32,000 nucleotides of DNA from an uncultured bacterium. GTDB taxonomy: Bacteria; Patescibacteriota; Gracilibacteria; UBA1369; PNNO01. Shown one piece after another: positions 16,625-29,469 of this stretch. How positions within the stretch are numbered: the stretch's first letter is position 1; every line of letters starts with the position of its first letter. The stretch lies in assembly GCA_963704705.1 (NCBI GenBank), contig OY969931.1, forward strand, positions 1,140,001 to 1,172,000, read 5' to 3'. The notes beneath the pieces are model-generated. The model ran no database searches. It saw nothing but the letters and a program-made list of their open reading frames with translations, and had not been told where the DNA came from. The translations under genes and the position numbers were made by a program.

Positions 16625-17017
16625 TCAGGTGGGGTCGTCGGTGAAGTCGAAGGACTGCTGGGGATCGTTGGCTCTGAGTTGCTGTTCGTGAAGTTCTGCG
16701 AACTTGGGCAAGCCGTACACGGCTATATAAACCATCGTCAGCAAAACAGAAATATTGATCGTGCCGGGGTCTGTTGAGGGACTAAAATATTCAGCCATCA
16801 GCAGCAAAAGAAGAATTGCCAGATAAATCAGTGAAGAGAATAGTCTGAAGCGCTGTCTGATGCTGACGATACAGATGACGAGACCGAAGCCCAGTTGCAC
16901 CTGAAGAGACAGCATCGTCTTCCACTCGAAGTAGTCATGCAAACTCGCAAAAATAAAGAGCGGAATGATCAGCCAAAAGGACCTGAAGGCAATCCTGGCG
17001 ATCTGCTTCGTGGACAT
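16625..17017 (-). CDS. Orphan 130-aa membrane protein (about four hydrophobic segments) in a GC-rich patch
   Basis: Hydrophobic ORF. A hand count of 16625-16700 gives about 58% G+C, against about 34% in nearby host genes. A purine-rich GAAGGGGA lies 6 nt before the ATG, and the gene has its own consensus promoter at 17147-17175. Confidence 0.6.
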   Translation of the reverse strand: MSTKQIARIAFRSFWLIIPLFIFASLHDYFEWKTMLSLQVQLGFGLVICIVSIRQRFRLFSSLIYLAILLLLLMAEYFSPSTDPGTINISVLLTMVYIAVYGLPKFAELHEQQLRANDPQQSFDFTDDPT

Positions 17018-17146
17018 TTTATATCCCCTTCCCGGAAGTTATTCAACTTCCTGCAGTTGTTGTTCGAATCAAAGAGCGACAGTAGTTAGGTTTATTTCAG
17101 CTAAACCAAAAGCAAAGCGATTACACCTTATACTACCTGAATTAAA

Positions 17147-17175
17147 ATTATGCATTACTATTGTTATTTTGTCAA
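17147..17175 (-). promoter_or_regulatory. Consensus promoter TTGACA-N17-CATAAT for the GC-rich 130-aa membrane gene
   Basis: It lies immediately downstream of the pyrF stop and is followed by a ~120-nt leader. That leader carries the hairpin GGAAGTT-GAAT-AACTTCC just before the SD. Confidence 0.65.
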
Positions 17176-20482: not shown

Positions 20483-20488
20483 TTGGTT

Positions 20489-20494
20489 AATTTA
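20489..20494 (-). promoter_or_regulatory. -10-like TAAATT, 6 nt before the pyrD ATG
   Basis: Read directly. It would let pyrDKEF be expressed independently of the inserted cassette. Confidence 0.35.
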
Positions 20495-20588
20495 GGGTCC
20501 TTCAGAGACGCAAGTCTCTAGCGAGCAAAAACATATCGCGAGCTTAGCATGAGTCCCGCTAAGCGGGATGAATTCCTTTAATATTTAA

Positions 20589-20633
20589 TCATAAAAGTAG
20601 GAGGCTGACTAGGAAAAGATTTAAGTGTTTCAT
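20589..20633 (-). CDS. Possible 14-aa hydrophobic micro-ORF (MKHLNLFLVSLLLL)
   Basis: Hand translation. GGAGGG lies 5 nt upstream of the ATG. The ORF is very short, so it is only tentative. Confidence 0.25.
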   Translation of the reverse strand: MKHLNLFLVSLLLL

Positions 20634-20643
20634 ATTTGCCCTC

Positions 20644-20781
20644 CTACTTGATGATCCCATACACGATGAGTCCCAGAAGCACTATGCAGAAGACTATAAG
20701 TCTGATGTACAGCCATACTGCTTCGGCATCTTCGATCGCCTTGAGTTCCTCAGGTGTCGGGTTCTCAAACATTTTAAACAC
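20644..20781 (-). CDS. 45-aa single-TM micro-protein (GTG start; 42 aa if ATG at 20772)
   Basis: Hand translation (M)FKMFENPTPEELKAIEDAEAVWLYIRLIVFCIVLLGLIVYGIIK. AGGAGG at 20789-20794 lies 7 nt before the GTG. It is below the ORF-track cutoff. Confidence 0.5.
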   Translation of the reverse strand: MFKMFENPTPEELKAIEDAEAVWLYIRLIVFCIVLLGLIVYGIIK

Positions 20782-20818
20782 TTCGGTTCCTCCTTTCTAG
20801 TCAGCCGTTAGCTGACGT

Positions 20819-20962
20819 TCAAGCGAACAAAACAACGAGATCTGCAACTGCAAGCGCAAAAGCACCATGAACCATGTAGTTCGGATTGCTAAGCGCAACA
20901 ATAGCAGCCCCAAATCCGACAACAAATGCTCCAACGCAAAGTGCTGCCATAAGTTTAGACAA
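20819..20962 (-). CDS. 47-aa two-TM micro-protein (TTG start; 43 aa if ATG at 20950)
   Basis: It is the C-terminal part of the track's 106-aa ORF. AGGGGGG lies 5 nt before the TTG. Sequence: (M)SKLMAALCVGAFVVGFGAAIVALSNPNYMVHGAFALAVADLVVLFA. Confidence 0.45.
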   Translation of the reverse strand: MSKLMAALCVGAFVVGFGAAIVALSNPNYMVHGAFALAVADLVVLFA

Positions 20963-20985: not shown

Positions 20986-21102
20986 CTAGCTCAGGTTGAT
21001 GTTTTGGTAGATGCAGAACCCCACGAACAGAGCCTCTGTTCCTACCATGAAAGCAAAAATCAAAACGTCCCAATGCTTTTGGATCCACTTGCGAGTCGTC
21101 AT
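20986..21102 (-). CDS. 38-aa single-TM micro-protein
   Basis: Verified codon by codon as MTTRKWIQKHWDVLIFAFMVGTEALFVGFCIYQNINLS. GGAGGG at 21110-21115 lies 7 nt before the ATG. It is in a different frame from the track's 106-aa ORF. Confidence 0.5.
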   Translation of the reverse strand: MTTRKWIQKHWDVLIFAFMVGTEALFVGFCIYQNINLS

Positions 21103-21122: not shown

Positions 21123-21148
21123 GCCAGCCCTGTTTTCAAAGGACCAGC
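21123..21148 (-). promoter_or_regulatory. Conserved 5'-leader hairpin, copy A (minus strand GCTGGTCCT-TTGAAAAC-AGGGCTGGC), upstream of the 38-aa ORF
   Basis: 26-nt element paralogous to 21685-21710. The stem is kept through G-U wobbles that work only on the minus-strand RNA. Confidence 0.55.
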
Positions 21149-21284
21149 ACTAAAACACTTTGTTTGAAGGTTTGTAGCGCAAAAAACCCTTTAAGGTGAG
21201 TATAGTAAAGTATTTAAAATTTTAAAACAAGTTTTTATTTGGGAATTCGGCTGGCGGGGTTGTTGTGCCGAATTGGAAGGATTC

Positions 21285-21527
21285 TCATGACTTTGGCTTT
21301 AGTGCGATGATGAGAAGATAGATCATGAGACCTATCAATCCCAATGCACAAAGCGATGCACATATTCCGAAAATGATCGAACCCAGAGCAAAGGGCTTGC
21401 CTCCGGCCACGAAACGGTCGGCATCACAGCATGAGAGCATGAGAAGAAAGGTGAGAAGCCCGATGCATGCAAACAGCATCAGTGCTTTTTTGATGGGAGA
21501 GGGCTCGTAAGGTTCAAGTTTCTTCAT
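21285..21527 (-). CDS. 80-aa two-TM micro-protein
   Basis: ORF-track entry with hydrophobic segments ALMLFACIGLLTFLLML and LGSIIFGICASLCALGLIGLMIYLLIIAL. The ATG overlaps the stop of the upstream 46-aa ORF (ATGA). AAGGAA lies upstream. Confidence 0.6.
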   Translation of the reverse strand: MKKLEPYEPSPIKKALMLFACIGLLTFLLMLSCCDADRFVAGGKPFALGSIIFGICASLCALGLIGLMIYLLIIALKPKS

Positions 21528-21664
21528 GGTTTCCTTTCATGTAAGTTTACGTTGCAGCTTGGGGCCTTTAAATCTCCTCTTTCGAGTGAAACCGAGAATC
21601 CCAAGGCCAGCATCAGTGCCATCAGCACGAATGCGAACAACACGAACGCGTTACTTCCCTTCAC
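21524..21664 (-). CDS. 46-aa N-terminally hydrophobic micro-protein (GTG start)
   Basis: Verified codon by codon as (M)KGSNAFVLFAFVLMALMLALGFSVSLERGDLKAPSCNVNLHERKP. GGAGGA at 21671-21676 lies 6 nt before the GTG. It is translationally coupled to the 80-aa ORF. Confidence 0.5.
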   Translation of the reverse strand: MKGSNAFVLFAFVLMALMLALGFSVSLERGDLKAPSCNVNLHERKP

Positions 21665-21684
21665 TTTTTGTCCTCCAATTTTCC

Positions 21685-21710
21685 GCCAGCCTGATTTTCA
21701 AAGGTCTGGC
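21685..21710 (-). promoter_or_regulatory. Conserved 5'-leader hairpin, copy B (minus strand GCCAGACCT-TTGAAAATC-AGGCTGGC), upstream of the 46-aa ORF
   Basis: It has the same position relative to the SD/start as copy A. Confidence 0.55.
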
Positions 21711-21782
21711 TAAATCTGCTTGTTTTGCGATTCTAACCTAATCCTTTGGAAAAGAATTAAAGCACAGGGTAAACAAATTTGC

Positions 21783-21809
21783 AAATAGTCAAATTTTCCC
21801 CGGGGAAAA
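21783..21809. repeat. 27-nt exact repeat AAATAGTCAAATTTTCCCCGGGGAAAA, copy 1, abutting the pyrC stop codon; likely the pyrBC terminator
   Basis: It contains the 16-bp perfect palindrome TTTTCCCCGGGGAAAA. On the minus strand this is followed by TTTGACTATTT. It is identical to 29052-29078. Confidence 0.9.
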
Positions 21810-28671: not shown

Positions 28672-29469
28672 ATGACTGATAAAGAGTTATTTAAATTATG
28701 TCAGGAGTATGGCGCAAAAGCACGCATGTGGAAGAACAAATTTATTGCCTTGCTTCCGGAGGTGTATAAAAGGCGATTGTATAAAAAGCGCGGTTATGGA
28801 TCGATTTTTGAGTTTGCTGCAAAGCTTGGAGGAGTTAGTAAAAATGTAGTTGAAGATGTTTTGCGATTGGATGTGCAATTTGAAGATAAACCAAAACTTA
28901 AAGCTTTAATTCCAGAAATTGGTGTGAGCAAGTTAAAAACTATTGCTTCTGTTGCAAGCATTGAAACAGAAAATCTTTGGGCTAAAAAAATCCAAACAAT
29001 GTCCAGGGCAGCAATAGAAACAGAAATTAGAGATCAAAAAAATAATGTAGAAAATAGTCAAATTTTCCCCGGGGAAAATTTTGAAACATTCACTGCGAAG
29101 CTTTCTCCAAGAACAATCCAAAGACTAAAAATCATTAAAGTTAAAATGGGGCAAGGCACAACATGGGAAGAAGTTTTTTGTAAGCTTGCGGGCCTTGCGA
29201 CCCCTGAGCCAAAACGCGAATACAAGCAGAGGCCAAGCAAATCGCGGGCCGTGCCTGCCAAACAAAAACGAGAACTTCCTGAAATTTGCGAAATTCCCGG
29301 CTGCAACAAGCCGGCCGAAGAAATCCATCATAAAAAACCATGGGCAATATTTAAAAAACACGACAAGCTTAAAGCTCTGTGCAAAGCCCATCATGAGCTT
29401 GAACATCAGGGCGACACAGTGATCGACAAAAAATATAGGGCCTATAAATGGCAGGCCGCATTATTATGA
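28672..29469 (+). CDS. HNH endonuclease with DUF222-like helical N-terminal domain
   Basis: C-terminal HNH/zinc motif CEIPGCNKPAEEIHHKKPW...LCKAHHELEH. The N-terminal pattern (YKRRLYKKRGYGSIFEFAAKLGGVSKNVVEDVLRL...LIPEIGVSKLKTI) resembles DUF222-HNH proteins. The track start at 28648 is GTG, so the ATG at 28672 is preferred. Confidence 0.85.
   Translation: MTDKELFKLCQEYGAKARMWKNKFIALLPEVYKRRLYKKRGYGSIFEFAAKLGGVSKNVVEDVLRLDVQFEDKPKLKALIPEIGVSKLKTIASVASIETENLWAKKIQTMSRAAIETEIRDQKNNVENSQIFPGENFETFTAKLSPRTIQRLKIIKVKMGQGTTWEEVFCKLAGLATPEPKREYKQRPSKSRAVPAKQKRELPEICEIPGCNKPAEEIHHKKPWAIFKKHDKLKALCKAHHELEHQGDTVIDKKYRAYKWQAALL
29052..29078. repeat. 27-nt exact repeat, copy 2, inside the HNH ORF (encodes NSQIFPGE)
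   Basis: Identical to 21783-21809. The palindrome is followed by TTTTG on the plus strand, giving an intragenic terminator-like hairpin. Confidence 0.9.

Follow-up and report, generated by a model that had tools for sequence, protein, structure and literature searches.

Leader hairpins with matched terminators in a pyr operon island of an uncultured Peregrinibacteria-like bacterium: a candidate end-pairing RNA switch

The island between pyrC and pyrD

The window, i.e. the whole stretch of 32,000 nt that was analysed, derives from a 1.37 Mb genome assembled in one contig (35.5% G+C), the dihydroorotase of which has its best named relatives in 'Candidatus Peregrinibacteria' and 'Patescibacteria group' bacteria. 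The 16S rRNA is bacterial by score (1505 bits, vs 1038 bits with the archaeal model). On the minus strand, pyrB-pyrC are split from pyrD-pyrK-pyrE-pyrF by an island of 1.3 kb, which interrupts an otherwise tightly coupled pyr operon. The G+C content of the island (42-47%) exceeds that of the genome, and the region hosts five small hydrophobic ORFs, each preceded by a strong Shine-Dalgarno (SD) sequence. SDs are rare in this organism: a 4-mer SD was found within 20 nt in 37 of 983 long ORFs of the genome (G000), a crude count in which the first ATG of each ORF was taken as the start. Despite such rare SD use, the 3' tail of the 16S rRNA features CCUCCUUUCU.

The island is plausibly organized in transcription units having a common layout: a sigma-70-type promoter, a leader of 60-90 nt, one to six ORFs and a terminator hairpin. 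Units, start sites and 3' ends were all predicted from consensus promoter and terminator motifs. The window includes units A, B1 and B2; relatives also feature a unit K, encoding a Ser/Thr kinase. One further unit was identified at another locus of one genome of the genus (G001), and two in a sister genus. Close relatives differ in the genes located between the conserved ends, since the kinase may be present or missing and ORF A1 may be replaced. The core of each leader, denominated X', is GGCUGGC or a variant of it plus 2-9 flanking nucleotides, and has two alternative partners: a proximal one (X*), with which it forms a 26-nt hairpin, and a distal one (X), located in the terminator hairpin of the same unit. 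The features of the window are listed below; promoters, leader ends and terminators are predictions.

21756..21784 (-): unit A promoter, TTGCAA, 17 nt, TG-n-TTTAAT (extended -10), located just after or overlapping the end of pyrC
21743..21749 (-): CCAAAGG, predicted 5' end of the unit A leader; conserved motif, pairing in folds of the long-range state with CCUUUG of the hairpin
21685..21710 (-): leader hairpin A, 5' arm GCCAG-A-CCU, loop UUGAAAAUC, 3' arm AGGCUGGC; X' core at 21685-21691
21683..21691 (-): X'(A), the 9-mer GGCUGGCGG, complement of the unit A 3' element
21524..21664 (-): ORF A1, 46 aa, one hydrophobic helix, conserved GDLK-x-PSC motif, no Pfam match
21285..21527 (-): ORF A2, 80 aa, lipobox-like LSCC, C-terminal hydrophobic helix, no Pfam match
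21244..21274 (-): unit A 3' hairpin, AAUUCGGC, 15-nt loop, GCCGAAUU
21249-21257 (-): X(A), CCGCCAGCC, within the unit A 3' hairpin, running from the 3' part of its loop into the 3' arm, of which it takes the first 3 nt
21202..21230 (-): unit B promoter, TTGTTT, 17 nt, TACTAT, kept in B-type leaders
21123..21148 (-): leader hairpin B, 9 bp including U-G and G-U; X' core GGCUGGC at 21123-21129, followed by GUU
20986..21102 (-): ORF B1, 38 aa, hydrophobic
20819..20950 (-): ORF B2, 43 aa, hydrophobic
20797..20819 (-): mini hairpin with two roles, preceding ORF B3
20810-20819 (-): 5' side of the mini hairpin, AACGUCAGCU, 10 bp with the flank of leader B
20797-20806 (-): 3' side of the mini hairpin, GGCUGACUAG, 10 bp with the final terminator
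20644..20781 (-): ORF B3, 45 aa, hydrophobic helix near the C terminus
20591..20647 (-): final terminator, GUAGGAGGGC, loop of ~32 nt, GCCUCCUAC, then UUUUAU
20603-20612 (-): X(B2), CUAGUCAGCC, within the final terminator

The TGnTTTAAT box is kept in all A-type leaders. An alternative promoter candidate adjoins the predicted unit B promoter. Searching Pfam at E <= 0.1, no family was assigned to any of the small island ORFs. Homologues of ORF A2 were found at 64-76% identity. ORF A2 and the homologues L012:1755-1955 and L011:1808-2047 feature the lipobox-like motifs LSCC, LSGC and ALCC after an N-terminal hydrophobic stretch, in addition to the C-terminal helix, and on these sequence signatures may be small lipoproteins. 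A 14-aa ORF at 20589-20632 (23 aa with an upstream start) was discarded as non-coding, because conservation concerns the nucleotides (89-95%) and not the frame, which changes from genome to genome; the segment corresponds to the loop of the final terminator.

Some sequences at the borders of the island deserve mention. Between the final terminator and pyrD there is an addition of about 80 nt (20483-20577), with two or three hairpins rich in GC; it is missing in G002, G003, G004 and Lg198, and L193 and L206 have different extra sequence at this place. An exact 27-nt repeat containing TTTTCCCCGGGGAAAA is found beside the pyrC stop (21783-21809) and, 7 kb away, at 29052-29078.

In most relatives a gene encoding a 555-640-aa Ser/Thr kinase (Pkinase) is located between units A and B, and has its own matched leader and terminator (L010:2372-4084, L011:2310-4208, L201:5202-7121, L203:7127-8896, L205:7285-8952). 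The gene is missing in the window genome, in G002 and in L193. A search for kinase homologues was swamped by generic kinases and yielded no new loci. In L202 (5976-6610), two tandem leader motifs match one 3' element, the first of them matches also a site 136 nt downstream, and a gene of >1400 aa follows the leaders in place of the kinase.

Conservation of the leader hairpins

The 26-mers at 21123-21148 and 21685-21710 had been picked out in a sequence-only reading of the window as paralogous leader hairpins. Both are found with the sequences quoted there, 8-12 nt upstream of an SD, and both fold as minus-strand RNA, hairpin A at -11.3 kcal/mol (9 bp, z -3.17) and hairpin B at -9.6 kcal/mol (z -2.47). 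That folding is specific for the minus strand holds for copy B, which on the plus strand reaches only -3.2 kcal/mol (z +0.38); it does not hold for copy A, a near-perfect palindrome which folds on both strands. The changes in the 5' arm between the two copies are C-to-U and A-to-G, as had been read. The similarity of A and B extends over 44 nt (73% identity), through the SD to the start codon. A degenerate 20-nt pattern covering loop and 3' arm matches exactly two sites in the window, vs 0.04 expected from shuffled sequences, and the two leader hairpins are the only strong matches in the 1.37-Mb genome.

Two further hairpins preceding SDs had been regarded as unrelated. The reading is wrong for the one found upstream of the ORF starting at 20781, which belongs to the same system because it features the same arm motif (GUCAGC / GGCUGAC). 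The hairpin upstream of the ORF starting at 17017 does look unrelated to the leader motif. In this region (16625-17175) pyrF is followed by a 130-aa membrane ORF with a promoter to itself (TTGACA-17-CATAAT). The leader hairpin is GGAAGUU-GAAUA-ACUUCC, and the SD region of the ORF is linked to its 3' end by a 6-nt match only (GGGGAU/AUCCCC).

Collecting homologous leaders and building a covariance model, as had been suggested along with the original reading, recovered the conserved hairpin in relatives. The model (43 nt) was built from nine copies. Over 151 genomes of the order, it gave strong matches in the genus, including a third copy at the other G001 locus, and identified one copy in the sister genus (G010), again between pyrC and pyrD. 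Beyond the genus, only the G010 match looked real, the other weak matches in the 151 genomes being devoid of the expected context. More copies came from metagenome and Logan contigs found via pyrD, ORF A2 and pyrC. Overall, the hairpin is present in all the related genomes and contigs that carry an insert between pyrC and pyrD, in at least 19 distinct copies, and when the four other genomes of the genus are compared, conservation across the island peaks at the hairpin regions. Nothing matched in Rfam, whether the whole window was searched at gathering thresholds or the island at E <= 10. A pattern scan of genome contigs, too loose with its 15 specified bases, returned chance matches plus one copy already known, and viral contigs returned chance matches only. 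An ordinary-looking intrinsic terminator found elsewhere in a relative (L152, G002:C54:336-378) has a similar loop (GUUGAAAAUC) on an unrelated stem, which is probably a coincidence.

Aligning 15 copies, 94.5% of the stem cells are occupied by standard pairs, vs 23-68% in slid registers, and none of 500 shuffles reached the observed values, keeping in mind that the alignment was fitted to the model and favours the structure. The sense strand is the more stable in 12 of the 15 copies (means of -13.4 kcal/mol for sense and -8.3 kcal/mol for antisense), a comparison which overstates independence because the copies are related. The 5' arm occurs in at least eight forms, some of which have lost the bulge or shifted register, and all still pair, C or U being found opposite G, and A or G opposite U. 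The 3' arm is nearly invariant across the homologous copies, in line with what had been noticed in the window, and the distance from hairpin to SD is constant. The notion of a functional RNA structure rather than a DNA site is therefore sustained in part. Pairing and strand bias across copies support a structure of the sense-strand RNA; the hairpin is not a stand-alone element, and the changes in its GC stem are all one-sided, because the 3' arm hardly varies. Interpreting TTGAAA / CTGGC as a sigma-70 -35 box or a sigma-54 site was rejected, because no -10 or -12 element is found at the right spacing, a position taken by the SD.

Complementarity between leaders and terminators

The invariance of the 3' arm is accounted for by the second partner, as X' is held also by X in the terminator region. 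In every unit of which both ends have been recovered, X' and X are complementary over 9-16 bp and lie 200-1900 nt apart; this amounts to 28 distinct leader/terminator pairs from 17 assemblies. Two or three types of Watson-Crick pairs are found at each of the helix positions 4, 6, 7, 8 and 9, with the proviso that leader and terminator sequences come from roughly two genera and are not independent, the separate compensatory events being perhaps 6-8. Positions 8 and 9 had been left free by the pair search; the former is Watson-Crick in 27 of the 28 pairs (two types), the latter in 24 (three types). The energy of the duplex is unexceptional, chance sites throughout the genome reaching -25 to -28 kcal/mol vs -22 for unit A, and the case for the putative long-range helix rests on rarity of the sequence, position and covariation.

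The 8-mer CGCCAGCC or its complement occurs at 13 sites in the genome. Three of these fall within 560 bp in the island, and correspond to the two leader hairpins and to an inverted copy located just after ORF A2. The latter is part of the unit A 3' hairpin, which in every relative is formed by (AA)UUCGGC, a loop and GCCGAA(UU), and its X element CCGCCAGCC is the exact complement of the leader GGCUGGCGG. L181 and L201 have GGCUGGUGG in the leader and CCACCAGCC at the 3' element, so that a C-G pair is exchanged for U-A between segments ~370-390 nt apart.

B-type units follow the same rule with different flanks. In G004, G002 and L205, GGCUGGCUA pairs with UAGCCAGCC, and in L181 the unit B helix grows to 16 bp. 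In the window, the leader sequence GGCUGGCGUU of unit B pairs with AACGUCAGCU, the 5' side of the mini hairpin, and the 3' side of the same hairpin, GGCUGACUAG, is in turn the leader element of unit B2, forming 10 bp with CUAGUCAGCC in the final terminator. A three-way change is found at position 6 of the mini hairpin, where X*, X' and X are U, A and U instead of C, G and C.

Kinase leaders feature the homologous motif CCUUGAAAAYC-R-GGCYGACGAGA, which matches over 10-14 bp the 3' arm UCUCGUCGGCC of the terminator. Relative to units A and B, the pairing of GGCCGACGAGA with UCUCGUCGGCC involves two double changes (U-A to C-G and G-C to A-U), and U-G intermediates of these exchanges are found in four lineages. 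Loop-like motif, X' and match to the terminator are all kept in kinase leaders; the local 5' arm is weak and variable. Paired elements were identified also at the second locus of G001 (AGGCUGGCGU and ACGCCAGCCU) and in the sister genus (GGGCUGGCG with CGCCAGCCC, GGGGCUGGUG with CGCCAGCCCC). The flanks of the helix are typical of the unit, and are GG/CC, UA/UA, GU/AC or GUU/AAC. A 9-bp inverted repeat in L206 (GAGCUAAGG with CCUUAGCUC) was left aside, since it may have arisen by chance.

In all five terminator types, X is located at the junction between the 3' part of the loop and the 3' arm. The loops are unusually large (8-35 nt), and X covers the beginning or the whole of the 3' arm. Because of this position, the long-range helix and the terminator hairpin are mutually exclusive; the long-range helix similarly excludes the leader hairpin.

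The main rival to pairing of RNA ends reads the same segments as DNA. Inverted repeats would bracket each SD-plus-ORF segment downstream of a fixed promoter, and would be sites for inversion (phase variation) or cassette exchange, their identity being kept by recombination and the RNA hairpin being incidental. Repeats of 9-16 bp in inverted orientation, having a core that is conserved and flanks typical of each unit, would suit this role, as would the variable gene content between conserved ends in close relatives, and repeats kept by recombination would covary too. However, all units have one orientation in all the 17 assemblies, and no recombinase gene is found in or beside the island. Most departures of the helix from Watson-Crick pairing are wobbles of the sense RNA, U-G for the kinase and G-U for B units, with one A-C in L193, and the wobble pairs and register shifts by which pairing of the 5' arm is kept are meaningless for DNA. 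Recombination also leaves unexplained why the 3' copy should always sit where terminator loop and 3' arm meet. We consider this reading improbable. A relation to integrons was rejected. The attC site is an imperfect palindrome of 57-141 nt with R'' and R' core sites, found at the 3' end of the cassettes in an array; the stem-loops described here measure 26-36 nt, GTTRRRY follows only some of the B copies, the model recognises just two copies genome-wide, and every unit is served by a promoter of its own.

A candidate end-pairing switch and its known counterparts

Folding predictions were obtained for nascent and full-length RNAs. When the RNA was ended before the 3' end, the local hairpin was kept in all of 12 units. 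When whole units were folded, the long-range helix was part of the minimum-energy structure in 21 of 26, mostly with a probability near 1, and the 21 include four kinase mRNAs of 1.9 kb; in the remaining five, the minimum-energy structure features the local hairpin. Any helix of >= 9 bp joining 5' and 3' ends was found in 7 of 120 random genomic segments of similar length. When the RNA was made to begin at the predicted start sites, the extreme 5' end of the leader paired with the released 5' arm and CCUUUG in 13 of 13 units (9 A-type, 4 B-type), the partners being CCAAAGG and its variants, and GGCG with UGCC. The long-range state thus explains the conservation both of the loop and of the motif at the 5' end of the leader.

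With the same start sites, the mean predicted accessibility of the SD decreases from ~0.6 to ~0.24 in the full-length fold, and is lower in 12 of 12 units. The partner of the SD falls within the last ~45 nt in 11 of the 12, and is often pyrimidine-rich; in unit A of G002 it is located mid-transcript. The drop is to be regarded as fragile, because a first run with arbitrary 5' ends gave no consistent change.

The hairpin could alternatively act by itself, as a local 5'-UTR element. It might be a protein site made up of the UUUGAAAAU loop and the GGCUGGC arm, an mRNA stabiliser or a ribosome standby site, the match to the terminator being a by-product of reused GC-rich stems. A loop and a 3' arm nearly invariant over at least 19 copies, placed at a constant distance from the SD and folded in all nascent RNAs, would fit such an element. 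It leaves unexplained, however, the compensatory change found 370 nt away in L181, the matched flanks specific for each unit, and the kinase leaders, in which the terminator match is kept next to a weak and variable 5' arm. Shared ancestry of stems does not explain the match either, because the hairpin stem bears no relation to the terminator stems of units A and B. A purely local role seems to us unlikely.

Conservation, double complementarity, compensatory changes and thermodynamic predictions, taken together, make a switch of the hok/aapA kind, in which a local hairpin alternates with pairing of the two ends of the mRNA, a moderately probable interpretation; transcription of the units and all functional consequences are what we infer from them. 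During synthesis, the local hairpin would hold X' and leave the SD accessible. Once the 3' end is made, X' would switch to X, releasing the 5' arm and CCUUUG to join the extreme 5' end of the leader, and the SD region would be taken up by pyrimidine-rich sequence on the 3' side. The outcome would be a closed, end-paired mRNA, less translated and probably more stable.

Because the X'-X helix overlaps the 3' arm of the terminator, it could instead, or also, be a long-distance antiterminator, i.e. a variant of the switch with another output. Free X' would capture the loop and 3' arm of the nascent terminator so that the polymerase continues to the next unit and ultimately to pyrD-F; the local hairpin would be the anti-antiterminator, restoring termination. 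All five terminator types show the overlap, their large loops (8-35 nt) offer a toehold ahead of the 3' arm, and the island lies in the middle of a tightly coupled pyr operon. Against this, the 5' arm of the terminator is adjacent and should win kinetically, a U-tract is missing from the unit A 3' hairpin, the genome has neither PyrR nor an Rfam match to a PyrR site, and no signal can be named as a candidate; we give this output a low probability. The PyrR attenuator proper (RF00515) was discarded, as no Rfam match was obtained at the gathering threshold or at E <= 10, and PyrR (NF003545), found in control genomes, is absent from this one.

The end-pairing switch may also be framed more broadly, as a modular system of matched ends. 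The leader of each inserted unit would recognise its own terminator across 0.2-1.9 kb, the local hairpin acting as the switch, and would govern translation of the unit as well as the continuation of transcription to the next unit and pyrD-F, combining remote sequence-addressed antitermination and end pairing in an SD-poor host. This is speculative, and of low probability. If the switch is real, the island provides naturally replicated compensatory variants for the study of co-transcriptional refolding, and illustrates the control of foreign, SD-dependent genes by a host that rarely uses SDs; looking for leaders matched to terminators would in addition be a rule by which to search for such switches elsewhere.

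To our knowledge, long-distance pairing of the 5' and 3' ends of bacterial mRNAs has been described in only a handful of cases (hok, aapA, icaR, hbs). In hok mRNA, the 5' element tac pairs with the 3' end element fbi, and the full-length RNA is closed and untranslated; in the nascent RNA, tac is kept by a metastable hairpin formed locally, and coupled covariations reveal the pathway (PMC9841398). The island shares several traits with hok/Sok. The ORFs encode peptides of 38-80 aa with a single hydrophobic helix apiece; pairing of a 5' element to the 3' end of its own RNA is indicated by sequence covariation and predicted folds; a local hairpin holds this element in nascent folds and is replaced in full-length folds. 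As to hiding of the SD in the closed form, the folds diverge, accessibility being lower in 12 of 12 units with predicted start sites and showing no consistent change with arbitrary 5' ends. There are differences too. Island ORFs have no homology to Hok/Gef (no Pfam match), and a weak, consensus-based scan of 23 units found no positionally conserved antisense sigma-70-like promoter corresponding to that of Sok. Units have 1-6 ORFs, and one encodes a protein kinase. The nascent hairpin is predicted to leave the SD open, whereas in hok the SD is blocked, and the local partner is located upstream of the shared element, and not downstream as in hok. Membership of the island units in the hok family is not established.

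In aapA1 of Helicobacter pylori, folding makes the full-length transcript translationally inert, the rearrangement depends on the 3' end, and homologues have been found via the conserved structure of the mRNA (PMC5416894). Refolding to a closed transcript is predicted to depend on the 3' end in the island as in aapA1/IsoA1, in a different phylum (CPR). The similarity to icaR of Staphylococcus aureus, in which 5'-UTR and 3'-UTR pair at the SD (PMC3868564), and to hbs of Bacillus subtilis, in which a 14-bp helix between 5'-UTR and 3'-UTR modulates access of RNase Y (PMC5737220), is looser, and consists in complementary 5' and 3' segments on what motifs indicate to be one transcript. Unlike icaR and hbs, the units are tandem paralogues, each having its own matched pair and a competing local hairpin, and the 3' partner is embedded in a terminator hairpin. 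Three mutually exclusive pairings inside a pyr operon recall the classical attenuators, such as the PyrR-controlled pyr leaders; in contrast to these, the terminator is 200-1900 nt away, past the ORFs, and neither a PyrR gene nor a match to a PyrR site is found. The logic of 5'-3' pairing would here be embodied in a family of co-evolving leader/terminator pairs on several tandem units, ranging from multi-ORF operons of small membrane proteins to a protein kinase gene, in an uncultivated, ultra-small (CPR) lineage akin to Peregrinibacteria.
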